This document shows, piece after piece, positions 332-15,290 of a stretch of 63,693 nt of DNA. The notes under the pieces were generated by a model. That model was not told where the DNA came from, did not search any database, and saw only the letters and a program-made list of their open reading frames with translations. How positions within the stretch are numbered: the stretch's first letter is position 1; each line of letters starts with the position of its first letter. Source of the DNA: an uncultured Erysipelotrichaceae bacterium (GTDB lineage Bacteria > Bacillota_I > Bacilli_A > RFN20 > CAG-826); NCBI GenBank assembly GCA_900317295.1, contig ONGB01000001.1:1-63693 (forward strand), given 5' to 3'. The position numbers were made by a program, and so were the translations under genes.

Positions 332-2347
332 ATGAAAACCAAACTTCTCCTGACTCTGGCCGCCTCTGCTTTGCTTCTCGCCGCCTGCGGTGGGACTCCG
401 AAGCCGACCCCGACCCCCTCTTCCGAAGAGACCACTTCCGAGACCACCTCGGTCGAAAGCGAAGATTCCTCTGAAGAAGAAGTGACCTCCGAAGGAACCT
501 CTGAAGAAACCACCTCTGAGGAAGCCACTTCCGAAGGCACCTCCGAGGAAGCGACCTCGGAAGAGACCACCTCCGAAGAGTCTTCCGAAGAATCCTCCGA
601 AGAATCCTCCGAATCCTCCTCTGAAGAAGAACATGAGCCCTCCGCGAAAGCCGTCCTCCGCAACATCGGCACCGGAGAGGAAGTCGCCTCCATCACCGAA
701 GGCACGGGCGCCTATAAGCTCGTCGTCGAATTCGAGAACCTCCCCGATGGCGCTGACCCCGCCTCCGCGACCTATACCTTCCCGAAATCCACCGGGATCG
801 CTCGCGTCCAAGAGCAAGCGGGATTTGCCGCCAACGAACGTCTATTCGTCGTCGAATTCGCCGGCATGATCAATGAGACCATCAAAGTCGACTTCAACCT
901 CGGCGGCGATCATCTCGTCTTCAACACTCCGTTAAAACTCGATATCGCCAAAAACGATGCCCTCTACACGAAGATTGGCACCCCCGAAGATTTCGTTAGC
1001 AAAGTCCTCACCGCGACCACTGGCCGCTTTGAGTTGACCGCCAATCTCGACCTCGGCGGCATGGATGCCCCGGGCGCGAAATCCAACGTCACCTTCAATG
1101 GCCTTTTAGACGGCAACGGCCACACGGTTTCCAACTTCGTCGCCGCCCCGCTAGATGATGGGACCACCGGCGGATTATGGACCCACGTCGGCAGCGGTTT
1201 GATCCGCAACACCCATTTCGTCGGCACGATCAACCAGACCGCTGGCTGGGGCTCCTTGCTTGGCAAAGAAGTCCAAGAACTCGCCATCATCGAGAACTGC
1301 CTCTTCGAAGCCACCTCCACCGTCGATACCTCCGCTTTGGATTGGACCTGGCAGCGTTCCGGCATCGTCGCCGGCTTCCTTAAGGGCACCGTCCGCGACT
1401 GCGTCACCTTCAACGTGACCGGCAACGCCCAGATGTTCGATATCGCCCCCTATGCTGGCTCGACCTCGCACATCCAGAACGTCTACACCTCTTCCGCGGA
1501 GAACCTTTCCATCCCCTTCGATCCGAATGGCGGCACGCAGGAATGGTCCGTCCCCGGCGATGCTGTGGGCTGCACCTATAGCGTCGACTGGGCAACCATC
1601 GACCTAGATACCGTCAAACTCGATTCCTCCATCTGGACGTTAGCCGCCGGCGTCGCCCCGAAGCTCGCCCATGATGGCGAATCCGCGGTCGTCTTCTCCC
1701 CGGCTTTGGAAATCGCTGGCATTCCCAACTCTCTTAAAGTTGGCGAACACGCCGCGCTCACCTTCTCCCCGAAGAACTTCCCCGAGGGCGAAGTCGCCTA
1801 TTCCATCGAAAACGCCAGCAAATTGAGCGCCGCCATCACCGATGCTTCGATTGATGTTGAAGCCTTGGCGGAAGGCGATGGTTCCTTCGACCTCGTCGCG
1901 AAGATCGCCGAGACCGAAGTGGCTCGTAAAACCGTCTCCATCGTCGTCTTGGACGCCGGCGCGACCGTTGAGGTCCTCCCCGTCATCGCCCAAGGCAACA
2001 GCCCGACCAAAATCGAAGGCGCCGGCATCTGGGTCTACCTTGATAACACCGACCTTGGCATCACCGGTGCCAACGCCGAATCCATCCTTGCCGACATCAC
2101 GATCAGCGCCACCTCGGAGAACCCGGCGGCCGCTCCGTATGTCGATGGCGGAAGCAACGCTCTCACCTATGACCACCATACGTTCGATGACTATGGCACC
2201 AACACGGTCCGCCTCTTCATCTTCATGAACGCCGGTGTCCCCACCGATTGGGATATGACCATCGAAGTCACGATCAAGCTCACGATCAGCGGCCAAGAAT
2301 ACGCGAAGACGATTTCCTTCTTCAACGGGGTCTACCAACAAGCCTAA
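332..2347 (+). CDS. surface lipoprotein with acidic S/E/T linker, GLUG-like beta-helix module, Ig-like region and an uncharacterised C-terminal module
   Basis: Signal peptide MKTKLLLTLAASALLLAAC with lipobox. AAGGA RBS 5 nt before the ATG at 332, so this start is preferred over 317. Motif FNGLLDGNGHTVSNF is shared with 12552..13916 and 13923..15290. Confidence 0.8.
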   Translation: MKTKLLLTLAASALLLAACGGTPKPTPTPSSEETTSETTSVESEDSSEEEVTSEGTSEETTSEEATSEGTSEEATSEETTSEESSEESSEESSESSSEEEHEPSAKAVLRNIGTGEEVASITEGTGAYKLVVEFENLPDGADPASATYTFPKSTGIARVQEQAGFAANERLFVVEFAGMINETIKVDFNLGGDHLVFNTPLKLDIAKNDALYTKIGTPEDFVSKVLTATTGRFELTANLDLGGMDAPGAKSNVTFNGLLDGNGHTVSNFVAAPLDDGTTGGLWTHVGSGLIRNTHFVGTINQTAGWGSLLGKEVQELAIIENCLFEATSTVDTSALDWTWQRSGIVAGFLKGTVRDCVTFNVTGNAQMFDIAPYAGSTSHIQNVYTSSAENLSIPFDPNGGTQEWSVPGDAVGCTYSVDWATIDLDTVKLDSSIWTLAAGVAPKLAHDGESAVVFSPALEIAGIPNSLKVGEHAALTFSPKNFPEGEVAYSIENASKLSAAITDASIDVEALAEGDGSFDLVAKIAETEVARKTVSIVVLDAGATVEVLPVIAQGNSPTKIEGAGIWVYLDNTDLGITGANAESILADITISATSENPAAAPYVDGGSNALTYDHHTFDDYGTNTVRLFIFMNAGVPTDWDMTIEVTIKLTISGQEYAKTISFFNGVYQQA

Positions 2348-2365
2348 TCCAATCATAAACATCTC

Positions 2366-2387
2366 GGCCCTCGGTAACCCGGGGGCC
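2366..2387 (+). other. GC-rich intercistronic hairpin (9-bp stem, loop TAAC) between the lipoprotein gene and the GH81 gene
   Basis: ggccctcgg-taac-ccgggggcc. No strong T-run follows, so it is more likely a stabiliser or partial attenuator than a full terminator. Confidence 0.4.
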
Positions 2388-2409
2388 ATTTGCTCGAAAG
2401 GGGAGAACC

Positions 2410-5406
2410 ATGAACAAATCCAAATGCCTGATCATCTTAGCCGCCTTGATCCTTTCCTCGTGCGGCAAGGGAGGGAATAAACCCTCGTCTTCCTCCTTGG
2501 ACTCCTCTTCTAATTCCTCCATTTCCAGCGAAATTCATAGCGAAACCTCCAGCGAATCCTCTTCGGAGGCCACTTCGGAATCCGTTTCCTCTTCATCAGA
2601 AGAAACCACTTCGGAATCGACCTCAGAAGCGTCTAGCGAAGAGGCTTCTTCCAGTTCCGAAGCATCTAGCGAGTCTTCCTCTGAATCCTCTTCCGAATCT
2701 AGCGAGGAATCCTCTACCTCCGAAGAAGTGGTGGGGGATTTGACCTTCCTTGGGACGGAGAACCTCACGATCGTCAAAGGGCATTATTTCGATCCCCTAG
2801 AAGGTGTGTCCGTCCAAGAAGACGAAACCGCCCATATCGAAGTGAAAGGCTATGTCGATTATGGGAAAGTCGGTAGCTACACCTTGCGTTATTTCGCTTC
2901 TTCTTCCCTGGGAAGTGGGGAAAAGACCCGCACGATCAAAGTCGCGGAAGGCAGCTACACCCATCCCGCGTTTAATCGTAGCCGCGGGGCGGATCGTTCC
3001 GTTTCCTTAGGCAGCGGATCCTACCGCACCGGGCAGGTTCCCGAAGGCCCGGCGGGGGATGGAAACCAATTCCATCTCGCTCCTTTGCCGACGAATGTCG
3101 ACACCGAAGTCCTTAATCGCGGCATGCTCCCATCCAATCAGTGGTGGTCGGGCTTTGCCTATGACAACCTTGGAGGCGTCACCTTAGGCCAACTCAACCC
3201 CTTGAGCTTTGGCTATATGTCCTCCGGCTTGCACCTAAGCTACCGCGGGGAAGGGTTCACCCAGTATTTCGAAGTCGCGGATACCTTTGGGAAGAACCAG
3301 ACCACGATGTCGAACTTCACCCCGACCTTCCAAGACCTCTTCGTCAAACCTTCTTCTTTAGAAAACGACTATTTCACCTCGATCATCGATTATGATGACG
3401 TCTCGGTCAAAATCGCCGCGCGGAATAGCCAAAACGGCGAGGACGAGATGGTGTCCACCTTCGTCCAAGGCTCCCCCTTCGTCGTTTCCGAATTCAAGAA
3501 CCCGAGCAGCGTGAACATCAACCTCCGCATCCCCGCGGTCACCCAACCCTATCGCTTCTACGATAAGCAGGGGAACGCGGTCACCTCATCTTATGATGGG
3601 GATGGTTTGATCATCTGCTTGCCCCAAGCCCATTACGGGTATGAGACGACCTATCCCTCCACCGCGGTCGGCGCGGCCCTATATCAAGACGTTTATTACT
3701 ACCTGTCCCTACCCAGTGGGAGCCATATTGACTTCGAGCAGGGCGATCATCCCTCCGCGGATTTCAAAGCTCATTTAACGATCCGCCTTGGCAATGGCAA
3801 CGCGCTCGGCGTCGCCTCCTCGAATACCCTAGACGGCGCGAAAGCCTACGCCTCCGCGGGGCAGTCCTTCTTGATGGAGGGCGGCTACGCCTATGAAGGG
3901 GCCGTCAATAGCGGACTTAAGACCACGACCTTCTCCTATAAGGTCCGTCATTTCGGCGAGCAAAATGATCCCTTGATGAGCCTATTGCCCCATCAATGGA
4001 AGAAACTTAACGAGACCCTCCCCATCGCGGGTTCCCTCCCGACCAAACGCGGTTTGACCAAAATCTATCGCGGAAGTTCTTTCTCCATGAATACCCCCTT
4101 CCATGGGTTGACCCCCTCTTTCGCCGGGCTATCCTCTAGCCTCCCCGAGATGGAGGGCTACCTCAATAAGATCATCGAGGACACCGTCCCCGGCGACGTG
4201 TCCATGACGTGGCAAGATAGCCAGAAGAACTATTACAACGCCCCCGGGCCCTACTGGTGTTCCAAGGCCCTTTATCCCTTGGGACAAGGGCTTATCATCG
4301 CCGACCAAATGGGCCTGACCTCCATCAAAAACACCATGAAATCCCGCCTGAAATCCCTTTTGGTGGATTGGTTCACCTATAGTGGGAACGATGACGCGCG
4401 TTGGTTCTATTACGATGAAGCGGTGGGAAGCCTCTATTATTCCGTCGACAATTTCTCGACGAACTCCAGGCTTAGCGACCATCACTTCACCGCGGGGTAT
4501 CTGGTCTCCGCCGCGGCGATCCTAGCGATGTATGATCCGGACTTCCTCCGCGACTATGGGGCGATGGCGAAGCTATTGCTTTTGGATTACATGAATTATG
4601 AAGGCAATCCCTCCTATCCCGCCTTCCGCGGCTTTGATGCCTATGACGGTCATAGCTGGGCGGATGGCAAAGGCGACTTCGGCGACGGGAACGACCAAGA
4701 ATCCTGTGGCGAGGCTCTCCATTCCTGGGCCGCCGGATATTTCCTCGGCGCCGCGCTTGGGGAGAAAGAGATGATGGAGGCCGCGAGCTGGGGCTTCTCC
4801 CTCGAATTAGAGGGCATCAAGCAATACTGGTTCAATTACGATGAGGATAACTGGATCCCCTCGTTGGCGGATTACACCCATGCCTTAGGCATCGTCTGGG
4901 GCGCGAAGAACGACTACGCGACCTGGTTCGGTTCCAACCCCGAATTCATCTACGGCATCCATTTCCTCCCAACCGGCGAATATCTATCCTCCTATGCCTT
5001 CGGAAACGAAGAGAAATCGATGGTGGGCAAGATCTACCAGGAATTCCTCTCCAAAGTCGACGGGGCGCCGCGCTGCTGGCAGTCCAACATGTGGGCGATG
5101 CAGGCGATCTATGATCCCGCGACCGCGAAATCGGTGTTCGATGGATCGAAGATCTACGCCGACCAATACGCGGATGAGGCCGCGGGATCCTATTACATGG
5201 TGAACGCGCTTAACGAACTGGGGCAGAAAGCCATCGACGTCGAACTCGAAGGCGAGCTCGCGCTTACTTCGTATATCAAAGGAAGCATGCGGACGATCCT
5301 CGCTTGGAACCCCACGGGTGAAGCGAAGACCTATTCCTACACCGTCTCCGGCGTCAAGAAAGAAGCAGTGGTCGCCGCGCATAGCTTTACTTTGTTAGCG
5401 ATCTAA
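2410..5406 (+). CDS. lipoprotein endo-beta-1,3-glucanase, GH81 family, with Ser-rich linker and N-terminal Ig-like domain
   Basis: Lipobox ILSSC. GH81 signatures SDHHFTAGY (4477..4500) and GHSWADG...NDQESCGEA with the E-x3-E pair (4693..4716). Confidence 0.85.
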   Translation: MNKSKCLIILAALILSSCGKGGNKPSSSSLDSSSNSSISSEIHSETSSESSSEATSESVSSSSEETTSESTSEASSEEASSSSEASSESSSESSSESSEESSTSEEVVGDLTFLGTENLTIVKGHYFDPLEGVSVQEDETAHIEVKGYVDYGKVGSYTLRYFASSSLGSGEKTRTIKVAEGSYTHPAFNRSRGADRSVSLGSGSYRTGQVPEGPAGDGNQFHLAPLPTNVDTEVLNRGMLPSNQWWSGFAYDNLGGVTLGQLNPLSFGYMSSGLHLSYRGEGFTQYFEVADTFGKNQTTMSNFTPTFQDLFVKPSSLENDYFTSIIDYDDVSVKIAARNSQNGEDEMVSTFVQGSPFVVSEFKNPSSVNINLRIPAVTQPYRFYDKQGNAVTSSYDGDGLIICLPQAHYGYETTYPSTAVGAALYQDVYYYLSLPSGSHIDFEQGDHPSADFKAHLTIRLGNGNALGVASSNTLDGAKAYASAGQSFLMEGGYAYEGAVNSGLKTTTFSYKVRHFGEQNDPLMSLLPHQWKKLNETLPIAGSLPTKRGLTKIYRGSSFSMNTPFHGLTPSFAGLSSSLPEMEGYLNKIIEDTVPGDVSMTWQDSQKNYYNAPGPYWCSKALYPLGQGLIIADQMGLTSIKNTMKSRLKSLLVDWFTYSGNDDARWFYYDEAVGSLYYSVDNFSTNSRLSDHHFTAGYLVSAAAILAMYDPDFLRDYGAMAKLLLLDYMNYEGNPSYPAFRGFDAYDGHSWADGKGDFGDGNDQESCGEALHSWAAGYFLGAALGEKEMMEAASWGFSLELEGIKQYWFNYDEDNWIPSLADYTHALGIVWGAKNDYATWFGSNPEFIYGIHFLPTGEYLSSYAFGNEEKSMVGKIYQEFLSKVDGAPRCWQSNMWAMQAIYDPATAKSVFDGSKIYADQYADEAAGSYYMVNALNELGQKAIDVELEGELALTSYIKGSMRTILAWNPTGEAKTYSYTVSGVKKEAVVAAHSFTLLAI

Positions 5407-5520: not shown

Positions 5521-6732
5521 ATGAAGAAAAGATTAATGGTCGTCATGGGTCTAGCCGTCGCTGCCCTTGGCATCGGCGCCACCGCCGCGGTATTGGGAAC
5601 CACCCCCGCCGTGTTCACCCGCGCTACTGGCGAAACCAGGTCGATCGTCTTGACTGCTGCCGATTTTTCTGACGGCAACGGTGATTTCAGCAAAGCTGGT
5701 CTTTCGTTCCACTATGAAAAGATCTCGGTGGTTGGAAACACCGTCACCATTGCAACGAGCGGGACGCTTCAAATGACCATGTCCCACTATTCTGGTGAGT
5801 CTGTTAGTGAAGGCGGGCTTATGGGCAATGGTTTCACTGCCTTGGCCTTCACTGACTACTATCAAGATGGTGTAGGTTCTGTTGCTTTCGGTAAAAAAGG
5901 CACTGTAGATGACATCCTCGCCACTTATACCGTTGCAGCAAGCATGGATTTAACTCATCAAGATGGTGGAGCCGAAGTTCCGAGCGATAACCGTCGCAGA
6001 ATTCACATTAATGCCGCGCACACACTTTCTTTCACCAAAATTACCTATAGCTATGAGTGTGTCGAAGCTAAACCGACCATCGAAATCTCTGGTGATCAAT
6101 TTGTTGAAAAGAACGCCACTGGCAACTTGACCGCTACTACCGAGCGTGTTGATGGGTCCGCTACTTACAACTGGACTTCTTCGAATACTGATGTTGCCAC
6201 TGTTGTTGGTAATGGCAAGTCCGCTACCGTTACCGGCGTTGCCGCTGGCGGCGCCACGATCACCGTCAAGGCTATTGTGAATGAAGCCGTTGTTGCTACC
6301 GACACCTTTGCCCTTACGGTCACCGACCCCGCTTCTAAGGTCTACATGGATTGGAACAAGAGCAACAAAGACCCGAACCACGGTCCTCTCCAGTTCGATG
6401 GCGCGGGCTTAATTATTGGTCTTGATCTTACATCCGTTGGTCGCAACGAAGCTTGGGTCAATGATAATAAAGATAAGATTTCGTTCGAATTTAGCAGAGA
6501 GGGCTGGAATTTGGTCAACTGGCAAACCCCACCCTGGTCCCCGTTTCCTGGTTTCTATGGGTCCTTCCCGAGTGCTGATTTCTCGACCCTGACATCGATC
6601 ACCATTAGGATGCCAAACGACCATGATGTCCTGGCGGTTGCTGAGATGACCCTCTCCTGGTCTGGCAGCACCTATACTGTCTTGACCCTCAACGGCCAGT
6701 CCTTCGCCGCCTATATGGGCATTGCGGCCTAA
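5521..6732 (+). CDS. secreted protein with Big_2 (bacterial Ig-like) domain and an uncharacterised C-terminal module
   Basis: AGGAG RBS. Signal or anchor sequence MKKRLMVVMGLAVAALGIGATAAVLG with no lipobox Cys. Big_2-like segment YNWTSSNTDVATVVGNGKSATVTGVAAGGATITVKA. Confidence 0.75.
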   Translation: MKKRLMVVMGLAVAALGIGATAAVLGTTPAVFTRATGETRSIVLTAADFSDGNGDFSKAGLSFHYEKISVVGNTVTIATSGTLQMTMSHYSGESVSEGGLMGNGFTALAFTDYYQDGVGSVAFGKKGTVDDILATYTVAASMDLTHQDGGAEVPSDNRRRIHINAAHTLSFTKITYSYECVEAKPTIEISGDQFVEKNATGNLTATTERVDGSATYNWTSSNTDVATVVGNGKSATVTGVAAGGATITVKAIVNEAVVATDTFALTVTDPASKVYMDWNKSNKDPNHGPLQFDGAGLIIGLDLTSVGRNEAWVNDNKDKISFEFSREGWNLVNWQTPPWSPFPGFYGSFPSADFSTLTSITIRMPNDHDVLAVAEMTLSWSGSTYTVLTLNGQSFAAYMGIAA

Positions 6733-6745
6733 TCCAAAACCCTAA

Positions 6746-6795: not shown

Positions 6796-8106
6796 ATGAA
6801 ATCCCGCCTCTTTAAGACCAATGCTTCCGCCACTTTTGTTCCGGCGCGTTTTCTTGACGAGACGGAAAAAACGGATGGGGAAGTAGTGGTCCGCCCTATC
6901 TACAAACAAACGATCCTCGGCTACGGGGGAGCCTTCACGGATTCCTCGGCATCGTTATACGCGAAACTAGACGAGAAAACGAAGAAGGAATTCATCCGCC
7001 TCTATTTCTCCAAAGAGGGACTTGGCTACAACCTTGGTCGCGTGACGATTGGCTCCTGCGATTTCTCCACGGGGATGTATGACTACGCGGAGAAAGACAA
7101 TTTGTCCGATTTCTCGCTTAGCCATGATGAGAAGGCCATCATCCCGATGATTAAGGACGCGTTAAAGGAAACCTCTTTGTCTTTATTGGCCTCCTGCTGG
7201 TCGCCTTTGGCGAAGTGGAAAGATAGCCATGACAAAGACCACGGGGGACATCTATTAAAAGAACATTTCCCCGACCACGCGGAATACATGGCGAAGTACG
7301 TCGAAGGATATCGCGCCTTAGGTCTTCCCGTCGTCGCGATGACCATCCAAAACGAGCCCGCGGCCACCCAGACCTGGGAATCCTGCCTCTATTCCCCCGA
7401 GGAAGAGGCGGAGATGGCCTTATTGCTTAAGAAAAGGCTCCCGGATACCAAGATTTATGTTTGGGATCATAACCGTGACATCATGCTCGACCGTGTTAAC
7501 GGGAGCCTGTCCGTTCCCAACGCCAAAGAAGCGATCTACGGGGTCGCCTACCATTGGTATGACGGAGATAAGAACGCAGAGATCGCCAAGGTCAAAGAAG
7601 CTTATCCGGATCTGCATATCCTCTTCACCGAAGGGTGCGTCGAATTGCTTAATCTCAATAAAGATGACCCCTCCTCAGCGATCGGGACCTTCGAAAACGG
7701 CAGGCGTTACGCGGAAAACTATATCCGCGACCTGAATTATGGCAGCGAAGGCTTCCTCGATTGGAATCTCCTCCTTGATATGAACGGGGGGCCTAATCGC
7801 GTCGGGAATTATTGCGAGGCCCCGATCCTCACCGACGGGAAATCGCTCCATCCGACCTATTCCTATTACTTCATCAAACACCTATCCTCCTTCCTCCGTC
7901 CCGGGGCGAAGGTGATGGAGGTTGAGGCCCCGGAAGGCGTTCTCGCCGTGGCGGGGAAAAACCAAGAAGGCAGCCTCGCCCTCGTGCTGCTCAACCTAAA
8001 AGAGGGGAGGAATCTCTCCCTATCCATCGGGGCCTGGAAAGGTAAAATACCTTTGGGAAAAAACGAAATCGTTTCAATTGAACTGGAAGGGGTAGATCTA
8101 TGGTAA
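6796..8106 (+). CDS. cytoplasmic GH30 glycoside hydrolase (glucosylceramidase / beta-1,6-glucosidase-like)
   Basis: ILGYGGAFTDSSA, IGSCDFS, TIQNEPA (7342..7362), HWY and FTEGC motifs typical of GH30. No signal peptide. Confidence 0.8.
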   Translation: MKSRLFKTNASATFVPARFLDETEKTDGEVVVRPIYKQTILGYGGAFTDSSASLYAKLDEKTKKEFIRLYFSKEGLGYNLGRVTIGSCDFSTGMYDYAEKDNLSDFSLSHDEKAIIPMIKDALKETSLSLLASCWSPLAKWKDSHDKDHGGHLLKEHFPDHAEYMAKYVEGYRALGLPVVAMTIQNEPAATQTWESCLYSPEEEAEMALLLKKRLPDTKIYVWDHNRDIMLDRVNGSLSVPNAKEAIYGVAYHWYDGDKNAEIAKVKEAYPDLHILFTEGCVELLNLNKDDPSSAIGTFENGRRYAENYIRDLNYGSEGFLDWNLLLDMNGGPNRVGNYCEAPILTDGKSLHPTYSYYFIKHLSSFLRPGAKVMEVEAPEGVLAVAGKNQEGSLALVLLNLKEGRNLSLSIGAWKGKIPLGKNEIVSIELEGVDLW

Positions 8107-9113
8107 CCATCTACGACATCGCGAAGAAGTGTGGGGTATCCCCCGCGACCGTCTCCAAGGTCATCAATAACTACTCGGCGATCCCCGAGGTGACGAAAGA
8201 GAAGGTCCGCCAGGCGATGGCGGAGCTCAATTACATTCCTAATGCGAACGCGAAATCCTTGTCCAAGGGCAAATCCCGCAACATCGGGGTCATCGCCTAT
8301 TTTGGGATGGACATCACCCCGTTTAAGCACGCGTTGTTCACCGAGATCCTCGACGCGGTTCAGCAGGAGATGGATTCCTCGCGTTACGATTTGCTTTTCG
8401 TTTCGCATAACGTCGCCGGGCAGCATGGCTCTTTCTTAAAGAATTGTCTCTCCCGCGATATCGCCGGGGTCGTCCTCTTCGGCAATTTCGCCCACCCGGA
8501 GATGAAGGAAGTCCTCGCCTCCCCGATCCCCAAGGTCGCCTTCGACTATGTTGGGGAAGGGGTCTCCAGCGTCTCCTCCAACTCCAAGCATGACATGCAC
8601 GAGCTCACCGAATACCTCCTCTCGCTAGGGCATCGCGACATCGTCTTCCTCCACGGCGAGGATGGCGAGGTCACCCGCCTCCGCATCGAAGGGTTCCGCT
8701 CCGCCATCGAAGAAGCGGGGATCCCTTTCCGCGAGGATATGCTCGTCGAAGGCCGTTATTTCGATATCGAAGGGGCAAAAGACCTCACCAAGAAGATCCT
8801 CGCCAGGGAACATCGCCCGACCGCGATCATGTATCCCGACGATTTCTCCGCGATCGCCTCAATCGGGGTGATTTCCTCGCTCGGGCTTCACTGCCCCGAG
8901 GATATTTCGATCACTGGGTACGACGGATTGGATGTTTCCCAGATGGTCACCCCGCATCTAACTACCGTCAAACAAGACCTTTCCGGCATCGGAAAAGAAC
9001 TTGCCAAGAAGCTCATCGAAGCCATCGAAAACCCCGATGCGGAACCTTCAAACATTCGTTTGGCTTCCACACTTTTGAAGGGCGGATCGGCTGGAAAAGC
9101 CCCCGCGAGATAA
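8100..9113 (+). CDS. LacI/GalR-family transcriptional regulator
   Basis: N-terminal HTH MVTIYDIAKKCGVSPATVSKVINN followed by a periplasmic-binding-protein-like sugar domain. The ATG overlaps the GH30 stop. Confidence 0.9.
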   Translation: MVTIYDIAKKCGVSPATVSKVINNYSAIPEVTKEKVRQAMAELNYIPNANAKSLSKGKSRNIGVIAYFGMDITPFKHALFTEILDAVQQEMDSSRYDLLFVSHNVAGQHGSFLKNCLSRDIAGVVLFGNFAHPEMKEVLASPIPKVAFDYVGEGVSSVSSNSKHDMHELTEYLLSLGHRDIVFLHGEDGEVTRLRIEGFRSAIEEAGIPFREDMLVEGRYFDIEGAKDLTKKILAREHRPTAIMYPDDFSAIASIGVISSLGLHCPEDISITGYDGLDVSQMVTPHLTTVKQDLSGIGKELAKKLIEAIENPDAEPSNIRLASTLLKGGSAGKAPAR

Positions 9114-9140
9114 ATTTGAAAAGTCAGGTATGCTTTTCGC

Positions 9141-9169
9141 TTGCCTGTAAGCGCTTACGCGTATAAAAT
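9141..9169 (+). promoter_or_regulatory. sigma70-type promoter TTGCCT-17-TAAAAT
   Basis: Hexamers and spacing read directly. A cre-like site overlaps the spacer, and the operator lies 7 nt downstream. Confidence 0.55.
9146..9159. promoter_or_regulatory. cre-like (CcpA-type) site TGTAAGCGCTTACG
   Basis: 13 of 14 positions match TGWAANCGNTNWCA. Sits between -35 and -10 of the transporter operon promoter. Confidence 0.55.
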
Positions 9170-9176
9170 AAATTTC

Positions 9177-9192
9177 AGGAAACCGATTTCCT
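9177..9192. promoter_or_regulatory. LacI-family operator candidate, copy 2 (AGGAAACCGATTTCCT)
   Basis: Identical 16-bp dyad, 17 nt upstream of the ATG at 9210. Confidence 0.6.
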
Positions 9193-9209
9193 AAAAGGAG
9201 ATATCCCAT

Positions 9210-10640
9210 ATGAAAAACATCAAAGCCAAATCCACGTTGATGGTCACCCTGCTCTCCGCGATGGCCCTTTGCTCTTGCGGCGGCGGCGGATCGAAGATCG
9301 ACCCCTCCGTCGAGCAAGTCTCGATCATGGCCTATAACGGCGGCTACGGCACCGATTGGCTGCAGGATATCTGCGAGGAATTCACCCGTCAGACCGGCAT
9401 CATCGCCACCTATTCCCCGGACTCCACGATCCTCAACAAGATCGAATCCCAGCTCACCGGCACCTGCGAATACGACATCTTCATGTCCCACGGCCTCGCT
9501 TGGCAGAACTTCGCCAGCCGCGGCCTCCTCGCTCCGCTAGATGACCTTTACGCCTCCGAAGTCGAAGGCGGCGTCACCTTTGAATCCCGCGTCTTGCCGG
9601 AAGCCTTGAGCCATGTCCGCTATATCGACAAAGACGAAACCGAGCATTATTTCAAAGTCCCGTTCACCCAGGGTTTGGGCGGCTTTATCTACAACGTCGA
9701 CATGTTCGAAGAAAAAGGCTGGGCGATTCCCAAGACCTATGACGAATTGACCGCGCTTTGCGCCCAGATCGTCTCCGACACCGGCGGAGCCGTCAAACCG
9801 TTCGCCTGGGCCGCCGCCCGCGACTATTACTGGGATTACCCGATCTATGAATGGTGGGCGGAGCTCGAAGGCAAGGAGAACTATGAGAAATGGTTCGACC
9901 TCAAAGGGGCCGACGGGACCTATGCGAGCGGTTACGAGTCCTATGACCCGAACGGCAAATTCTCCAACTTCAAGAAAGCCTTCAAGATGTGGTTCGACCT
10001 CGTCGGCACCCATCCCGAATACTGCAACGACAAAGCCTATAGCGCTTCCCTTTTGACCGCGCAGAACCAATTCTTCAACCAGAAGGCCGCGATGATCCCC
10101 TACGCCCAGTGGTGCAAGAAAGAGATCGAGAAGGCGATGAAGAAGAGCTTCACCTTCAACATCGCGATGATGCCGACCCCCAAAGCCAAATCCACCACGG
10201 CGAAGAACGTCAACTTCATGGTCGGCTTCGGCGATTCGATGATCGTCCCGAAGAAGGCGCGCCACCTCGAGAACGCGAAGAAGTTCCTCGCTTTCCTCTC
10301 TAGCGAATACGCCTGCAAAACCTTCGTCGAGAAGGCCGATGGCCCCTTCCTCGGCTTTGATTATTCCGGCATCGACCTATCTTCGATCACCGCGAATAAC
10401 ACCTATATCGCCTCGCTCCATAACATCCTGACGTCCTCGGAGAACATCTCCACCGACTCCAATAACCCGATTCTGGTCACTAACGGCGATACCTTCATCC
10501 AGCCGTGGGTTAACAATAAGCGTTATTACAAAGAAGTCTCCTCCGGTCAGGCCACTAGCGTCGACGCGATCATGAACGAAGTCTATGAGACCGCCAGGGA
10601 CGCCTGGCCCGCTTGGGTGCGCAACGCAGGGGTGCGGTAA
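9210..10640 (+). CDS. ABC transporter sugar-binding lipoprotein (solute-binding protein family 1)
   Basis: AGGAG RBS. Lipoprotein signal ...LLSAMALCSCGGGG. Size and Trp/Tyr-rich composition are typical of oligosaccharide SBPs. Directly followed by two permease genes. Confidence 0.8.
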   Translation: MKNIKAKSTLMVTLLSAMALCSCGGGGSKIDPSVEQVSIMAYNGGYGTDWLQDICEEFTRQTGIIATYSPDSTILNKIESQLTGTCEYDIFMSHGLAWQNFASRGLLAPLDDLYASEVEGGVTFESRVLPEALSHVRYIDKDETEHYFKVPFTQGLGGFIYNVDMFEEKGWAIPKTYDELTALCAQIVSDTGGAVKPFAWAAARDYYWDYPIYEWWAELEGKENYEKWFDLKGADGTYASGYESYDPNGKFSNFKKAFKMWFDLVGTHPEYCNDKAYSASLLTAQNQFFNQKAAMIPYAQWCKKEIEKAMKKSFTFNIAMMPTPKAKSTTAKNVNFMVGFGDSMIVPKKARHLENAKKFLAFLSSEYACKTFVEKADGPFLGFDYSGIDLSSITANNTYIASLHNILTSSENISTDSNNPILVTNGDTFIQPWVNNKRYYKEVSSGQATSVDAIMNEVYETARDAWPAWVRNAGVR

Positions 10641-10642
10641 GC

Positions 10643-11587
10643 ATGTTCGGCGCCTTCACCCGAAGAGACAACGCGCCGAAGAAGGCCTCTCCGCGCAGGA
10701 AACGCTTCATCTCACGGACGAGCATCTTCATCATTTTGATGCTGCTCTACCCCATCGTGCAGTTCTGCATCATGTGGTTCGGGGTCAACATCAACTCCAT
10801 TTTATTGACCTTCCAAAACACCGAAGGGCATTACTATTCCTGGAACGATCTCTTCCATAACTACGTCACCGTCTTCCAAGAGCTCGACACCAAGTCGATG
10901 CGGGAGATGCTTTCCGCCTCCTTCGCCTACGTGATCCTGAATTGCTTCATCACGTTGCCGATCTCCTTGCTTTTCTCCTATTTCATCTTCAAGAAGATCT
11001 ACGCGGCCGGGGTGTTCAAAGCCTTGTTCTACCTCCCGGCGATTTTGCCGGTCATCTCCTTGACCTTCGTCTTCACCCTCGCCTTCTCCAATACCCCGGA
11101 CGCGACGGGTTTCATGGCGACCATCATGTCGTGGTTCGGGCTCGACACCTCGACGTGGTTCTTCGGCGACATGGCCAAATGGATGGTCTGGATCTTCTGC
11201 TTCTGGACCGGCATCGGGTATGACGTGATGCTTTTGACCGCCGGGATGTCGCGCATCCCCAAGGAATTGCTCGAATCCGCGAAGATGGACGGCATCTCCG
11301 CGATGAAGGAATTCATCTACGTCGTCATCCCGCTGACCTGGCCGACGATCACCACCCTCTTCATCTTCGCGATGATGGGGTTCTTCGGCACCTTCCTCCA
11401 GCCGATGTTATTGGTCGAAGGCCAATATGGCACGAAGACCATCGGCCTGCAGATCTTCTATGAAGCCGATACCCCGGGCCGCGTCCATGCGGCGACGTTA
11501 GGGTTGCTTTGCACCATCGTCGGCTCCCCGATCATCCTCGGGGTCCGTTCACTTCTTAACCACTTCTTCAAGGAGGTCAATTTCTAA
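10643..11587 (+). CDS. ABC sugar transporter permease (MalF/LplB-like)
   Basis: Six or more TM segments. EAA-type loop ESAKMDGISAMKEFIYVVIP. The ATG at 10643, just after the SBP stop, is preferred over the overlapping 10613. Confidence 0.85.
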   Translation: MFGAFTRRDNAPKKASPRRKRFISRTSIFIILMLLYPIVQFCIMWFGVNINSILLTFQNTEGHYYSWNDLFHNYVTVFQELDTKSMREMLSASFAYVILNCFITLPISLLFSYFIFKKIYAAGVFKALFYLPAILPVISLTFVFTLAFSNTPDATGFMATIMSWFGLDTSTWFFGDMAKWMVWIFCFWTGIGYDVMLLTAGMSRIPKELLESAKMDGISAMKEFIYVVIPLTWPTITTLFIFAMMGFFGTFLQPMLLVEGQYGTKTIGLQIFYEADTPGRVHAATLGLLCTIVGSPIILGVRSLLNHFFKEVNF

Positions 11588-12534
11588 TGGCTTCCGTGAG
11601 TTCCCGCATCCGCGGCTTTTTCAAGAAGAAACGCGACGACCGCCGGAAAGAGGCGTATGTGCGCAAAAACAATATCCTTTATTCCCGCAAGAAAGGCGAG
11701 AAGGCCCTTTTCATCGTCTTCTTCGTGATCTTCCTCGTCTTCGCCGCTTCTTACATCTATCCCTTCCTTTGGCTATTGATGAACTCCTTCAAGACCCAAA
11801 CGGAATTCATCAACAACTTCGGCGGCTTCCCCCGCGCCCCGACTTTTGAGAACTTCATCGAAGCCTTCTCCTTCTCCTCGCCGGAGACCAATGGGTTCAC
11901 CGTCGTGCAGATGCTCGGGATGTCGGTTTTGGTCTCGGTCTCCGGCACCTTGGCCGCCGTCTTCACCTCGTCCTGCGCCGCCTATGTTGTCGCCAAATAC
12001 GACTTCCCCGGGCGCAAGATCATCTTCGGGGTCGTCATCTTCACGATGATCATCCCCATCGTCGGCTCCTTGCCCTCGCAGATTGCGTTGATGAAGGCGA
12101 TGCACCTCGATCAGAAAGTCATCGGCCTCGTCTTCCTCTATTCCGGCGCCTTCGGCATGAACTTCATGCTTCTCTACGCCTTCTTCAAGAACCTCTCTTG
12201 GAGTTATGTCGAGGCGGCGAAGATCGATGGCGCGAGCGATTTCCGCATCTTCTGGTCGATCATAATCCCGATGGCCAAAGGCCCGATGACCGCGATCGCG
12301 ATCATCACGCTTATCGGCCAATGGTCGGACTACATGACCCCGATGATCTACCTATCGACCAAACCGACCCTCTCCGTCGGCTTGAAGCTGCTTAGCGACA
12401 CGATGATGATCGATGGTAACTACACGATCCTCTTCGCGACCATCGTCATCTCGATCCTGCCCGTCGTCATCGGGTTCATCGCTTTCAACAAAACCATCAT
12501 GGAAAACACCGCCGTCGGCGGATTAAAAGGATAA
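11587..12534 (+). CDS. ABC sugar transporter permease (MalG/LplC-like)
   Basis: EAA loop EAAKIDGASDFRIFWSIIIPMAKG. TAATG overlap with the upstream permease gene. Confidence 0.85.
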   Translation: MASVSSRIRGFFKKKRDDRRKEAYVRKNNILYSRKKGEKALFIVFFVIFLVFAASYIYPFLWLLMNSFKTQTEFINNFGGFPRAPTFENFIEAFSFSSPETNGFTVVQMLGMSVLVSVSGTLAAVFTSSCAAYVVAKYDFPGRKIIFGVVIFTMIIPIVGSLPSQIALMKAMHLDQKVIGLVFLYSGAFGMNFMLLYAFFKNLSWSYVEAAKIDGASDFRIFWSIIIPMAKGPMTAIAIITLIGQWSDYMTPMIYLSTKPTLSVGLKLLSDTMMIDGNYTILFATIVISILPVVIGFIAFNKTIMENTAVGGLKG

Positions 12535-12551
12535 CTTTGGGAGGTATGAAA

Positions 12552-13916
12552 ATGAAAAAACCGGTTACCTTGCTCCTTCTCTCTGCGTCGCTATTTCTCG
12601 CCGCCTGCTCCGATGGCGGTAAAACGACCCCCGCGGTCGATCCGAGCGCGATCACCATCGTCGTCGCCGGCCCCACCAGCGTCGAAGTGGGCAAAACGAT
12701 CAAGCTCAACATCACCTTGACCAACGATAGCGAGCGCCTCGGCTTCGATGTCGAAAGCTCCGACCCGACCATCGCCTCCGTCGATGGGGAAGGCCGCGTC
12801 ACCGGCAAGAAGGTCGGCAACGTCATCATCACCGCCTCCTCGTCCAAAGACCCCTCCGTCAAAGCGACCTATGAAATCGAAGTCACCGAATCGAGCGTCC
12901 CGACGCTTAGCCTACATGCCGACCGCGACATCATCACCCTCGGCAGCGGCACCCTCACCTTCACCGCGAATCTCAATAACCCGACCCCCTATACCCCTGA
13001 ATACCTCTGGGAATCGGTCAACGGGAACATCTCCCCGCTTGGCGCCCGCAACCCCCGCGGCACCTTCCAGACCGTCTCCGCGGGCGGCGACACCGTCAAA
13101 TTGACCGTCCACGTCGGCCCCTATCTCCTCTCCGCCCAAACCTATGTCGTTGTTCAGCCGAACTATGAAGACGGCACCTGGCTATCGATCACCGACAAAG
13201 ACACTTTCGTCTCCAAACTTCTCACCAACAACACCGTCACGGGCAACTTCGCCCTCGACGCGGACATCGACCTCGAGGGGATGGAGATCCCGAAGTCCGG
13301 CCGCACCTTCGCCGGCGTGCTCGAAGGCAAAGGCCACACGATCTCCAACTTCAAAGTCCACGGCGCCCAAGATGGCAACATCTATAACTCCGCAGGCATG
13401 TGGAACAGCGTCACCGGCGCGATCCGCGACACCGCCTTCGACGGGGAAATCGATGAGCTCGGCTCCGGCTGGGGCGGCGCCTTGATCGCCGCGGAAGCCC
13501 CGGGCGTCTTCGAAAACCTCTTCGTCCATGTCAACCATAGCTTCGATAATGGCCAGAAACAGAAAGAGGGCTGGGTCGCTTTCAACGCCGCCCTCGTCGG
13601 CGTCGCCAAAGAAGGCGGTCGCTTCCATGACCTCGTCATCGAAGTCGCCGATAACGAAGGCAAAGCCACCTGCTATGCCGATACCGCCTATCCTGCGGGC
13701 AGGGTCGGAGCGCAGACCTTCAAATTCGATAACCTCTATACCAATTCGACCGTCGTCGGCGGGCAAACTTGGGACTGGGGCGACGCCGTCAGCGATCTCT
13801 CTGGCTACTACACCGGCATCAACTTCGCCGGCCAGGACGCTTCCCTCTACCGTCTCAATCCGACTTTGTGGAACCTTGAAAGCGGCGTCAAGCCGACCCT
13901 CAAGGTCCGGGAGTAA
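12552..13916 (+). CDS. lipoprotein with Big_2 domain and GLUG-like beta-helix module (paralog 2)
   Basis: GGGAGG RBS 7 nt before the ATG at 12552. Signal MKKPVTLLLLSASLFLAAC. Motif FAGVLEGKGHTISNF. C-terminal end WNLESGVKPTL. Confidence 0.75.
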   Translation: MKKPVTLLLLSASLFLAACSDGGKTTPAVDPSAITIVVAGPTSVEVGKTIKLNITLTNDSERLGFDVESSDPTIASVDGEGRVTGKKVGNVIITASSSKDPSVKATYEIEVTESSVPTLSLHADRDIITLGSGTLTFTANLNNPTPYTPEYLWESVNGNISPLGARNPRGTFQTVSAGGDTVKLTVHVGPYLLSAQTYVVVQPNYEDGTWLSITDKDTFVSKLLTNNTVTGNFALDADIDLEGMEIPKSGRTFAGVLEGKGHTISNFKVHGAQDGNIYNSAGMWNSVTGAIRDTAFDGEIDELGSGWGGALIAAEAPGVFENLFVHVNHSFDNGQKQKEGWVAFNAALVGVAKEGGRFHDLVIEVADNEGKATCYADTAYPAGRVGAQTFKFDNLYTNSTVVGGQTWDWGDAVSDLSGYYTGINFAGQDASLYRLNPTLWNLESGVKPTLKVRE

Positions 13917-13922
13917 ACATCT

Positions 13923-15290
13923 ATGAGAATTCCCTTCCTATTCCTTTCCGCGCTGGCGACTTTGTCACTGGTCTCCTGCGGCAATTCCGGCCCGAAAGGC
14001 GCGGCGATCCGCGATGGCGATGTCGTCTTCACCAAGACCCCCTACGTCGATCTTTCCGCTTTGCCCGAGCGGCTGAACCTCGAGGTGGAAGTCACGGGGA
14101 AAATCACCCGTCTCCAAGTCGGGACCCAGGTCCTTTTGAACGAGAATAGCGGCAAGTATTCCTACGCCAAAGGCATTTTGACCATCGATACCTCCGCCTT
14201 TAAGGACAAAGACGGCGAATTGCTCATCGGCCCGGGCGATCAGCCGATCCGCATCTACGCGGACACCACGGTCACCACGAGCTGCCTCTTCGTCAGCAAA
14301 GTGATCAAGACCGCGGAAGACCTAGTGGCGATCAATCAAGGCGGAAGCGCCGCCCTCCAAGGCGCCTATATCCTTGGCAATGACATCGATTGCTCCTCCA
14401 TCGCCAACTTCGAGCCGCTAGGCTATAGCGATACCGATGACGGCACGCACTATAACGAGCAGTTCAACGGCATCTTCGATGGCAATGGCTATTCCATCAA
14501 GAACGTCACCACCAAATATTCGAATAACCCCGCCTCCTATAAGGAAATCTTCGACGGGAATTACCAATTCGAAGACGAAGCCCACAAAACCGGCAACAAA
14601 TTCGGTTTCTTCCAAGAAATCGGCGGCGCGGGCGTCGTGCGCAACGTCGCCTTCGATAACGTCTCAATCACGGGACGCACCATAGTCGGCATCGTTGCCG
14701 GGCTCAACTCCGGCCGCATCGAAAACGTGTTGGTCAAAGAGAATTGCCGCGCCCTCATGTCCACCCATTTCTATGATGAGACCTGCGCCTTAGGCGGCAT
14801 CGCCGGGGTCATCTCCTCCTCCGACACCGCCATCGTCGAGCACTGTCTCTCCTTGGCCACCGACCTCAATATCGTCGAGACCTACGTCGATTACGATGAA
14901 GAGGCCTATTACGAAGAAGACCATGGGATCACCCATACCTTCTATAACGGCGAGCTTGGCTGGGACGATTCCAACGGTAAGCGCGCGAATAACATCTACT
15001 CCGGCGTTGGCCTCACATATGGCGTCGCCAGCGAGAACCTCGGGAAGCTCTTCAACGTCACCCCGACTGGGCTGCCCGCCGACTTCTCGCAGACCCACAT
15101 CGAGGCCAACAAAGAGAAAGACGGCCCCGACTGCGGGATGCTCACCGACTGCGACATGCTCTCGGTGACCGAACTGAAGACTGCCGCCCCGTATGAGGCC
15201 CATAACTTCGATACCTCCGTTTGGAACCTCAAAGAGGGTGTCTTCCCGTCCTTCAAGGCGGTTTACCCCTCCCGCATCTACAAGGCCTAA
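13923..15290 (+). CDS. lipoprotein with GLUG-like beta-helix module (paralog 3)
   Basis: Signal MRIPFLFLSALATLSLVSC. Motif FNGIFDGNGYSIKNV ... FGFFQEIGGAGVVRNVAFDNVSITG...VGIVAGLNSGRIENV. C-terminal end WNLKEGVFPSF. Confidence 0.75.
   Translation: MRIPFLFLSALATLSLVSCGNSGPKGAAIRDGDVVFTKTPYVDLSALPERLNLEVEVTGKITRLQVGTQVLLNENSGKYSYAKGILTIDTSAFKDKDGELLIGPGDQPIRIYADTTVTTSCLFVSKVIKTAEDLVAINQGGSAALQGAYILGNDIDCSSIANFEPLGYSDTDDGTHYNEQFNGIFDGNGYSIKNVTTKYSNNPASYKEIFDGNYQFEDEAHKTGNKFGFFQEIGGAGVVRNVAFDNVSITGRTIVGIVAGLNSGRIENVLVKENCRALMSTHFYDETCALGGIAGVISSSDTAIVEHCLSLATDLNIVETYVDYDEEAYYEEDHGITHTFYNGELGWDDSNGKRANNIYSGVGLTYGVASENLGKLFNVTPTGLPADFSQTHIEANKEKDGPDCGMLTDCDMLSVTELKTAAPYEAHNFDTSVWNLKEGVFPSFKAVYPSRIYKA

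Follow-up and report, generated by a model that had tools for sequence, protein, structure and literature searches.

GLUG-like β-helix lipoproteins encoded in a conserved, predicted β-1,3-glucan import locus of uncultured gut Bacilli are candidate glycan-capture proteins

Our analysis of a 63.7-kb stretch of DNA (the window) from an uncultured gut member of the Bacilli, a relative of Ca. Alloenteromonas and Ca. Enteromonas, indicated that three lipoproteins (ORF1, ORF2, and ORF3) of a β-glucan import locus share a right-handed β-helix module of the GLUG/M26_N type, and that ORF3 is a core gene of this locus type. We tentatively regard the three proteins as non-catalytic glycan-capture or presentation proteins. 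Their binding to β-glucan is inferred from their position within the locus, their membrane anchoring, one fusion with a GH16 domain, and the variable lipoprotein slot that some of them occupy. These genes were formerly unannotated members of what seems to be a main β-glucan route in an abundant uncultured gut lineage.

Organization of the β-glucan locus

The predicted substrate of the locus (Table 1) is β-1,3-glucan (laminarin or yeast-glucan type), and the locus enzymes alone supply each step of a complete β-1,3-glucan pathway. The GH30 glycosidase is presumed to be cytoplasmic, since it has no signal peptide, and the surface GH81 lipoprotein carries an acidic linker and a Bact_surface_Ig-like domain. 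The gene order of second permease, ORF2, ORF3, GH16, and MalK, with gaps of -4 to 20 nt, agrees with the preliminary description of this DNA, which had placed ORF2 and ORF3 between the permease genes and the GH16 gene; the locus reaches beyond the extent given there and takes in the GH161 gene and the second GH16 lipoprotein gene. The 275-aa small membrane protein is weakly MusI-like.

Table 1. Genes and β-helix modules of the β-glucan locus, with positions in the window
Feature	Position (nt)	Strand	Description
ORF1	332..2347	+	671-aa lipoprotein; no Pfam family match
ORF1 module	944-1681		GLUG-like β-helix, ~aa 205-450
GH81 endo-β-1,3-glucanase lipoprotein	2410..5406	+	Pfam Glyco_hydro81C, E 1.3e-46; lipobox LSSC
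Big_2-containing protein	5521..6732	+	403 aa; N-terminal hydrophobic anchor; no function assigned
GH30 glycosidase	6796..8106	+	Pfam E 8.5e-46; no signal peptide
LacI-family regulator	8100..9113	+	
ABC solute-binding lipoprotein (SBP)	9210..10640	+	Pfam SBP_bac_1; lipobox
Two ABC permeases	10613/10643-11587 and 11587-12534	+	Pfam BPD_transp_1
ORF2	12552..13916	+	454-aa lipoprotein; accessory gene
ORF2 module	13164-13913		GLUG-like β-helix, ~aa 205-454
ORF3	13923..15290	+	455-aa lipoprotein; core gene of the locus type
ORF3 module	14298-15287		β-helix, aa 126-455
GH16 laminarinase-type lipoprotein	15311..16708	+	Pfam match; Big_2 spacer; lipobox; true start ~15311
MalK-type ABC ATPase	16705..18156	+	Lys/Glu-rich N-terminal extension of ~85 aa
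Three small membrane proteins	18163..20098	+	160, 210, and 275 aa; kept downstream of MalK
GH161 β-1,3-glucan phosphorylase	20172..23291	+	PDB 9qqk 'gh161 phosphorylase', E 5.8e-193; no signal peptide
Second GH16 lipoprotein	23293..24267	+	Acidic linker

Anatomy and kinship of the three lipoproteins

Each of the three proteins has a lipobox with its cysteine at position 19 (LAAC in ORF1 and ORF2, LVSC in ORF3), which confirms their earlier classification as lipoproteins, and Cys19 is invariant in the ORF3 family (58/58 members). In ORF1, the lipobox is followed by an acidic Ser/Glu/Thr linker (~aa 25-105), an Ig-like domain (~105-205), and the module, with another Ig-like domain and a ~130-aa C-terminal domain of no assigned type lying C-terminal to it. 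ORF2 passes from its lipobox through a Big_2 domain (aa 41-104) and a second Ig-like domain into the module, and ORF3 has a poorly conserved Ig-like stalk (aa 30-125) ahead of a well conserved module. The translations bore out the motifs by which a common module had been proposed: FNGLLDGNGHTVSNF (ORF1), FAGVLEGKGHTISNF (ORF2), and FNGIFDGNGYSIKNV (ORF3) at its N-terminal end, and WTLAAGVAPKL, WNLESGVKPTL, and WNLKEGVFPSF, respectively, at its C-terminal end. In a six-frame translation of the window, matches to the expression G-x-hydrophobic-(D/E)-G-x-G were confined to these three sites.

The proteins had been described as three paralogues. This held for ORF1 and ORF2, which are clear paralogues of one family with a similarity well above chance level (BLASTP E 3e-22, 32% identity over 289 aa), whereas the term overstates the kinship of ORF3 because ORF3 is a distinct family with its own invariant loops. 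Pairwise, the similarity of ORF3 to ORF1 and ORF2 was no more than motif-level (E 6e-4 and 0.014); its residues 127-313 aligned to residues 212-365 of ORF2 in an hhalign profile-profile comparison (probability 99.5%, E 2.7e-23), which by sequence links the ORF1 and ORF2 modules to the ORF3 β-helix. We therefore consider ORF3 to be a separate and much more widely conserved family having the module in common, and three equivalent paralogues were ruled out.

Fold and relationship to GLUG/M26_N proteins

The assignment of the module to a GLUG-type β-helix was supported by profile matches to genuine GLUG/M26_N proteins and by structural comparison, but not by the Pfam gathering thresholds. Neither ORF1 nor ORF2 matched GLUG (PF07581) or Peptidase_M26_N (PF05342) in Pfam at E<=1, and ORF3 matched M26_N at E 0.041 with 13.6 bits, under the cut-off of 27.7. 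Among 58 ORF3-family members, 22 weak M26_N matches (best E 4.6e-4) and 2 weak GLUG matches were found, judged by E-values that all fell well short of what the curated cut-off would imply. A profile of the ORF1/2 module searched against 5.8 billion sequences reached proteins with precomputed PF07581/PF05342 annotation (E 4.8e-12 to 1e-4); a k-mer-limited search with the ORF2 module as the lone query gave 3 matches, an alignment query being needed for wider reach. The ORF3 profile matched protein P0189 at E 2.5e-92, and P0189 itself scores 1e-56 for GLUG and 3.9e-26 for M26_N.

Structural modeling supported this relationship. Foldseek matches of the full-length ORF3 model were Ig-domain matches to the N-terminal stalk only, and the ORF3 module was therefore modeled alone. 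The resulting AF2 model was confident (pLDDT 94.9), and its top match was 3n6z (BACOVA_03286; E 8.7e-6, TM 0.47), accompanied by the IgA1 proteases 6xjb, 7uvl, and 7uvk (probability 0.97-1.0, TMq 0.33-0.34); the AlphaFold and Foldseek check suggested at the outset thus returned a β-helix. As modeled, the ORF3 module is a right-handed β-helix of the IgA1 protease N-terminal domain type. Matches to pectin, pectate, and fucoidan lyases and to GH28/GH55 were weak (probability <=0.35, TM ~0.2). A structural match to a protease had been named as evidence against a glycan role, and the best structural relative is indeed a protease domain, but a non-catalytic one that gates substrate (PMC7695701), and the fold match is for this reason neutral with respect to a glycan role.

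The absence of a recognizable glycosidase motif, noted previously, was borne out. No catalytic family (GH, PL, or CE) was detected for ORF1-3 by Pfam, NCBIfam, and PDB profile searches, and NCBIfam returned signal-peptide-type noise only. Against PDB sequences, only the Big_2 part of ORF2 was matched, and the ORF3-family profile found nothing. Pfam and NCBIfam gave no match of ORF1-3 to SusE/SusF families or CBM-like β-sandwich domains; weak CBM_X2 matches were seen in the N-terminal stalk of 13/58 ORF3 homologues (best E 0.0035). A protease reading was ruled out, as ORF1-3 contain neither an HExxH motif nor an M26 catalytic domain (no Pfam match to Peptidase_M26_C). Our literature search on 'GLUG' found nothing functional, and to our knowledge no glycan role is established for GLUG/M26_N domains, nor is a function assigned to them outside IgA1 proteases.

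Conservation across loci

Co-conservation with glucanase loci, the lack of which had been named beforehand as a refutation, was strong. Homologues occur in MAGs whose labels give chicken, rabbit, ruminant, and other gut samples as their source. A full-length ORF3 homologue was found in 52 loci of uncultured gut Bacilli, and all of these loci (52/52) have the ABC/GH16/GH161 neighborhood in the common order SBP-permease-[lipoprotein slot]-ORF3-GH161/GH16-MalK. The neighbors recorded for ORF3 homologues were SBP (35/35), GH16 (41/43), GH161 (44/48), and MalK (36/37), and the synteny persists down to 28% identity. ORF3 is a core gene of the locus, and ORF2, with an orthologue in 15/49 related loci, and ORF1 are accessory genes found in the same loci. 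The slot between the second permease gene and ORF3 is occupied by ORF2-type, ORF1-type, Big_2, or Flg_new proteins, or in one case by a protein with a sub-threshold CBM_4_9 match.

ORF1-like genes elsewhere adjoin GH81, GH16, and GH30 genes, as exemplified by the ORF1 homologue P0130, encoded directly upstream of a GH81 gene. Locus L021 encodes one lipoprotein in which an ORF1-type stalk and module (34% identity, E 1e-41) continue into a fused GH16 catalytic domain. The fusion argument rests on this single case, since the systematic search of 86 loci gave L021 only. These modules are also found in a 1057-aa protein of a Clostridia locus that encodes GH16, a GH94-type phosphorylase, and PGM.

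Proposed role and alternative explanations

In the mechanism that we propose, Ig-like or acidic stalks would hold the GLUG/M26_N-type right-handed β-helix off the membrane, so that β-glucan chains may be kept at the cell surface beside the glucanases and the SBP. The surface GH81 and GH16 lipoproteins would cut the polymer, the ABC importer would bring in the oligosaccharides, and the cytoplasmic GH161 phosphorylase and GH30 would complete their degradation. ORF3 would be the obligatory component and ORF2 and ORF1 exchangeable accessories, acting as functional analogues of SusE/F-type surface glycan-binding proteins (SGBPs). This capture role, which we advance tentatively, is favored because all three proteins have lipoboxes, because the genes are packed tightly in the operon between the permeases and GH16/MalK, because the locus enzymes alone make up a complete β-1,3-glucan pathway, because the interchangeable slot lipoproteins resemble SGBP genes in polysaccharide utilization loci (PULs), and because of the strict synteny of ORF3, the GH16 fusion, the glucanase neighbors of ORF1-like genes, and the Clostridia protein. 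It is also favored because the closest solved folds are non-catalytic, with no catalytic family or HExxH detected, and because conservation of ORF3 is concentrated in the module and not in the stalk. Of the 42 invariant residues, 24 fall in parts of the model that are neither helix nor strand, and F283/Y284, beside H282/D285, form a plausible candidate sugar-binding platform. Several observations speak against capture: the module has no apparent homology to known CBMs, its GLUG/M26_N relatives carry protease, fimbrillin, or adhesin domains, just one GH16 fusion was found, and the β-helix is a common scaffold for polysaccharide hydrolases and lyases.

The invariant residues of ORF3 also weigh against capture and lead to an alternative that we consider unlikely, in which ORF3, and possibly ORF1/2, would be a new β-helix carbohydrate-active enzyme (an unrecognized glucanase, a debranching enzyme, or a metal-dependent activity) acting on surface β-glucan. 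The orthogroup-specific invariant residues of the module are H221, T281, H282, D285, C288, D349, N351, H392, and K397, and all of these except N351 would make up the predicted active or metal site; the three His together with Asp, Cys, and Thr look more like a metal or catalytic site than like the fast-evolving site typical of an SGBP, and leave room for catalysis or metal dependence. The THFYDxxC loop occurs in 115/120 ORF3 orthologues; ORF1/2 lack it, as does the ORF3-like unit of the giant protein P0182. Invariant polar residues cluster in loops. An arrangement of these residues along one β-helix edge would follow from periodicity alone and is not relied upon. An enzyme would also be consistent with the fold, common to pectin, pectate, and fucoidan lyases and GH28/GH55 despite the weak Foldseek matches, and with ORF3 being no less obligatory to the locus than GH16 and GH161. 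Against this, sequence and profile comparisons matched no PDB enzyme and no GH, PL, or CE family, the best fold matches are non-catalytic, those to lyases and hydrolases being the low-probability ones, and the locus already encodes all steps for laminarin breakdown. Neutral β-glucans are, as far as we know, not lyase substrates, which also counts against an enzyme. Somewhat less probable still is a more specific version, in which the ORF3 orthogroup would be an unrecognized β-helix carbohydrate-active family, possibly with a metal-dependent site (H221, H282, D285, C288, D349, H392), performing a step beyond GH16/GH81; on β-1,3/1,6-glucan, such a step may be the opening of triple-helical or insoluble glucan or the cleavage of an unusual linkage.

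It is about as unlikely as the broader enzyme alternative that ORF1-3 serve, by analogy with the IgA1 protease gating domains to which they are structurally related, as protein-protein scaffolds or gates that organize or regulate the surface GH16/GH81 enzymes, the SBP, or the ABC transporter without glycan binding of their own. In 17 loci the ORF3 gene lies immediately next to the permease gene, and it is never encoded apart from the transporter, the tight operon spacing suggests stoichiometric co-expression, and the fusion joins a module to GH16, but any such complex is hypothetical, glycan capture accounts equally for fusion and synteny, and the wide variation of the slot lipoproteins fits substrate-facing proteins better than conserved subunits of a complex. 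That ORF1-3 are generic adhesins, protease-related proteins, or host-interaction proteins present in the locus by chance, with no part in glucan use, is very improbable: the wider superfamily is large (11,381 matches to the ORF3 profile, including many giant surface proteins with multiple repeats), and proteins reached by the ORF1/2 profile include proteases, fimbrillins, adhesin domains, and T9SS cargo and no CAZy domains, but ORF3 is strictly syntenic, ORF1-like genes are locus-bound too, protease features are lacking, and the genes lie inside an operon with gaps of 6-20 nt.

Glycan capture, the role that we tentatively prefer, would make ORF1-3 a possible Gram-positive, ABC-type counterpart of SusE/F-like proteins. 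GLUG/M26_N β-helix domains occur very widely, with >11,000 representative proteins reached by the ORF3 profile alone, and the compact, strictly syntenic ORF3 subfamily, as the core of a β-1,3-glucan import locus, provides a testable context for this domain. Should ORF3 turn out to be an enzyme, it would define a new CAZy family, one that uncultured gut Bacilli would depend on for glucan use.

Comparison with known systems

The general fold class of the module is shared with PL1 pectin/pectate lyases, fucoidan lyase FdlA, GH28, and GH55, polysaccharide enzymes that act at the cell surface or extracellularly; they show no sequence similarity to the module, nor were their catalytic motifs detected. 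GLUG/M26_N proteins (the S. pneumoniae and Gemella IgA1 proteases and BACOVA_03286) have the same cap motif (DID..., F-x-G-x-f-D-G-N-G-h-x-I-x-N) as the ORF modules, with GG(I/V)AG-type coils and a right-handed β-helix in both. Unlike these proteins, ORF1-3 are Ig-stalked lipoproteins of 450-670 aa without a protease domain, with sub-threshold Pfam scores, and encoded within a β-glucan ABC-importer operon, and ORF3 differs from general GLUG proteins by family-specific conserved loops such as THFYDxxC.

Published GH161 gene clusters, for example that of Acholeplasma laidlawii, bring together GH161, ABC permeases, GH16, and a β-glucosidase (Kuhaudomlarp et al. 2019, PMC6484121). They follow the same logic, with an external GH16, uptake through an ABC importer, and intracellular GH161 and a β-glucosidase-type enzyme. 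In the portion of that report consulted, β-helix lipoproteins are not described there as components, whereas they are conserved members of the present loci (PMC6484121).

The SusE/SusF SGBPs of Bacteroidota PULs are built from tandem β-sandwich CBM-like domains, in contrast to the β-helix here, with no relation in sequence or fold, and they serve a SusC/D transporter, whereas the present cell is of the Bacillota type and its locus has an ABC importer. They nevertheless resemble ORF2 and ORF3 as lipoproteins whose genes come right after the transporter genes, an arrangement that the 52 ORF3 loci keep; a variable slot with interchangeable members is likewise common to both, and the likeness may extend to the capture beside surface endo-glycanases that we propose here.

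Results

ORF1, ORF2 and ORF3 each have an N-terminal signal peptide with a lipobox at its end (Cys19), and their translations contain a glycine-rich motif in the versions FNGLLDGNGHTVSNF, FAGVLEGKGHTISNF and FNGIFDGNGYSIKNV, together with a common C-terminal motif, W-x-L-x2-G-x2-P-x-(L/F). In a six-frame translation of the whole window, a regular expression for the glycine-rich motif matched only the sites in these three ORFs. The translations and lipoboxes thus bear out the preliminary description of three lipoproteins carrying these motifs. ORF1 has a second possible start upstream, an ATG at 317.

Features of the β-1,3-glucan locus and its β-helix lipoproteins
Feature	Position	Strand	Remarks
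ORF1	332-2347	+	671 aa; lipobox LAAC, Cys19
GH81	2410-5406		lipoprotein
Big_2 protein	5521-6732		403 aa; between GH81 and GH30
GH30	6796-8106		without signal peptide
LacI regulator	8100-9113
Solute-binding protein (SBP)	9210-10640		lipoprotein
Two permeases	10613-12534
ORF2	12552-13916	+	454 aa; lipobox LAAC, Cys19
ORF3	13923-15290	+	455 aa; lipobox LVSC, Cys19
GH16	15311-16708		lipoprotein
MalK-type ATPase	about 16705-18156
Three small membrane proteins	18163-20098		160, 210 and 275 aa
GH161 β-1,3-glucan phosphorylase	20172-23291		without signal peptide; PDB 9qqk, E 5.8e-193
Second GH16	23293-24267		lipoprotein

ORF1 and ORF2 are clear paralogues (BLASTP E 3e-22, 32% identity over 289 aa), and ORF3 resembled either of them in pairwise comparison at the motif level only. 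When the profiles of the two families were compared (ORF3, 58 sequences; ORF1/2, 14 sequences), the match had a probability of 99.5% and an E of 2.7e-23 and paired ORF3 residues 127-313 with ORF2 residues 212-365, which indicates true homology of the module common to all three. The three had been called paralogues, but the proteins fall into two families (ORF1/2 and ORF3) rather than three equivalents. After its β-helix, ORF1 continues (aa 450-671, nt 1682-2344) with an Ig-like domain and then, at the C-terminus, with a domain of some 130 aa that gave no family match. Two ORF1 homologues, P0128 and P0129, have a second GLUG-like module in place of this domain, and a third, P0130, has another domain there; this end of the protein is thus modular and might be a binding domain.

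The module had no Pfam match above curated thresholds in any of the three proteins: ORF2 matched Pfam only through an N-terminal Big_2 domain, ORF3 showed a sub-threshold Peptidase_M26_N match (E 0.041) and ORF1 had no match, while NCBIfam and PDB sequence searches added nothing on the module. M26_N was weakly matched by 22 of the 58 ORF3-family members. Searched against 5.8 billion sequences, the ORF1/2 module profile retrieved proteins with PF07581 (GLUG), PF05342 (M26_N), PF12389 and PF13149 (E 4.8e-12 to 1e-4). At a cut-off of E<=1e-3, the exhaustive search with the ORF3 profile yielded 11,381 representative proteins, many of them giant, multi-repeat proteins, including P0189 (GLUG 1e-56; M26_N 3.9e-26). 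Many of the best matches were 1,000-7,000 aa long, with up to 22 matched stretches; one giant lipoprotein with four such motifs, P0182 (3160 aa), contains a complete ORF3-like unit of stalk and module at residues 1939-2349. AlphaFold2 gave confident models of full-length ORF3 (pLDDT 92.7) and of the module alone (aa 120-455; pLDDT 94.9); in the former, a β-rich domain comes after an Ig-like stalk at the N-terminus (aa 30-125). With the full-length model, Foldseek returned Ig-domain matches only; with the module alone, the top PDB match was 3n6z, BACOVA_03286, a 'putative IgA1 protease' (E 8.7e-6, TM 0.47), accompanied by the IgA1 proteases 6xjb, 7uvl and 7uvk (probability 0.97-1.0) and, after these, by pectin, pectate and fucoidan lyases at low probability. 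A viral structure library gave GLUG-type matches similar to those in the PDB. By homology and fold, ORF1-3 are divergent members of the GLUG/M26_N β-helix superfamily, so that the initial guess of a GLUG-like β-helix was supported by the profile searches and by Foldseek, with Pfam remaining sub-threshold. Identity as IgA proteases was rejected, since both the HExxH motif and the M26 catalytic domain are missing from ORF1-3; the proteins also fall outside the SusE/F family and all CBM and GH families.

The window locus is a β-1,3-glucan utilisation system, and its enzymes already cover every step of laminarin-type degradation. Intergenic distances from the SBP gene through the gene for the 275-aa protein are -28 to 20 nt. 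The locus reaches past its previously described extent to include GH161 and the second GH16 (20172-24267); the GH161 protein is cytoplasmic and had no Pfam match, and the second GH16 gene, starting 1 nt after it, encodes an acidic Ser/Thr/Glu linker. The MalK-type ATPase has a very Lys/Glu/Arg-rich N-terminal extension of about 85 residues, its ABC domain starting at residue 88, and in related loci, too, its homologues are long (~474-490 aa). The three membrane-protein genes that follow overlap at their stops and starts. Most related loci had matches to the 210- and 275-aa proteins, and the 160-aa protein was not detected by tblastn; the 275-aa protein showed a sub-threshold likeness (E 9.4e-7, 28.9 bits, cut-off 160) to the MusI family (maltose ABC importer accessory protein). 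The 403-aa Big_2 protein has an N-terminal hydrophobic anchor without a lipobox, one Big_2 domain and no other recognisable domain, and homologues in a few related loci (L020, L056, L060). Elsewhere in the window, a stretch of low GC (55591-58860; 0.43 vs ~0.54 elsewhere) contains tRNA-Ile(GAT), tRNA-Val(CAC), tRNA-Thr(TGT) and a 492-aa ORF (57382-58860) without a Pfam match, and may be an island or insertion beside tRNA genes.

At least 163 homologues of ORF3 (~450-500 aa) were found, all unnamed or 'hypothetical' and none with a Pfam domain, and a scan of GTDB species genomes gave 80 loci. Full-length matches were almost all in uncultured gut Bacilli or 'Mollicutes'-type MAGs, including Ca. 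Alloenteromonas, Ca. Enteromonas, Ca. Onthovivens and Acholeplasmatales; two Borkfalkia genomes had matches at 28% identity. Neighbours were mapped by tblastn of the window proteins against all loci and counted in the 52 loci with a full-length ORF3 homologue, with contigs permitting each check as denominators. The kept gene order was SBP, Perm1, Perm2, optional lipoprotein gene(s), ORF3, GH161 and/or GH16, MalK, small membrane proteins, GH30 and LacI. SBP lay upstream of the ORF3 homologue in 35/35 loci and Perm2 within 4.5 kb in 43/48; MalK (36/37) and GH16 (41/43) lay downstream, and GH161 just downstream (44/48), and the co-conservation with glucanase loci that the preliminary description had proposed to check was thus found. 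An ORF2 orthologue preceded ORF3 in 15 of 49 loci. Perm2 and ORF3 abut directly in 17 loci and are separated by one or two genes in 27, and all 38 of the 38 intervening genes encode lipoproteins, of ORF2, ORF1, Big_2 or Flg_new type or, in one case, with a sub-threshold CBM_4_9 match. In L001, from the Erysipelotrichales-labelled relative, two ~550-aa proteins with F5/8 type C (discoidin) domains encoded just upstream of the SBP gene (1618-5102) are a further candidate glycan-binding accessory of such loci.

ORF1-like homologues are tied to the same type of loci: P0130 immediately precedes a GH81 gene, the arrangement seen for ORF1 in the window, P0129 adjoins small membrane proteins, GH30, LacI, GH16 and SBP, and P0128 adjoins MalK, GH161 and a pair of GH16 genes. 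One 722-aa lipoprotein of L021 (Bacillota bacterium UBA9413; 14875-17043; 34% identity to ORF1, E 1e-41) joins an ORF1-type Ig stalk and module, through a DPTPDPDPTD linker, to a GH16 catalytic domain, the one such fusion among 86 loci. Three more L021 genes contain the module (6096-7466, 7470-9977 and 9992-11464). In L061, from an uncultured Clostridia (8318-17178), the order is SBP, two permeases, GH16, a 1057-aa module protein, phosphoglucomutase, a GH94-type phosphorylase and a ROK regulator. The 1057-aa protein has ORF3-like and ORF2-like modules and a weak match to a Pectate_lyase_5 'adhesive domain'. This gene content, which L062 and L063 appear to share, suggests that the module's tie to β-glucan ABC loci reaches beyond gut Bacilli MAGs.

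Discussion

Mean column identity in the ORF3 family is higher in the module (0.53-0.62) than in the Ig stalk (0.36-0.44), and in the model 24 of the 42 invariant module residues belong to neither helices nor strands, a pattern that points to a specific functional surface on the predicted ORF3 β-helix. Among the residues of this surface are H221, T281-H282-F283-Y284-D285, C288, D349, N351, H392 and K397; the THFYDxxC loop occurs in 115 of 120 ORF3 orthologues and is absent from ORF1/2 and from the ORF3-like unit of P0182. The aromatic-plus-polar THFYD loop would fit a sugar-binding platform.

Our tentative preference, held at somewhat short of even confidence, is that ORF1-3 capture or present β-glucan at the cell surface without catalysis, with ORF3 as the obligatory part and the other two as accessories. 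We favour this role because the enzyme set is complete, the proteins are surface-anchored, their position is SusE/F-like, the neighbouring slot accepts interchangeable lipoproteins and one GH16 fusion exists. The three invariant His with Asp and Cys of ORF3 would agree just as well with a metal or catalytic centre, and an enzymatic ORF3 is therefore kept as an alternative, if an unlikely one. In the pneumococcal IgA1 protease, the β-helix forms an N-terminal, non-catalytic domain that acts as a gate to the active site (PMC7695701); a role for ORF1-3 as a protein-protein scaffold or gate is kept as a further, equally unlikely alternative. Given the locus synteny, it is very improbable that ORF1-3 act as adhesins or proteases unrelated to glucan use.

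What is new here is that an unannotated subfamily of a widespread 'function-unknown' domain forms a core, strictly syntenic part of an ABC-type β-1,3-glucan locus of an uncultured lineage from the gut, and that modules related to it are found again at GH16 and phosphorylase loci of Clostridia. GH161 clusters with ABC permeases, GH16 and β-glucosidase have already been described, for example in Acholeplasma laidlawii (PMC6484121), whereas the β-helix lipoproteins of the window cluster go unmentioned in the accessible part of that account. Likeness to SusE/F-type surface glycan-binding proteins would lie in mode of action and not in family, and the β-helix proteins, beside their slot of interchangeable lipoproteins, occupy the same locus position as the SusE/F-type binding proteins of Bacteroidota.
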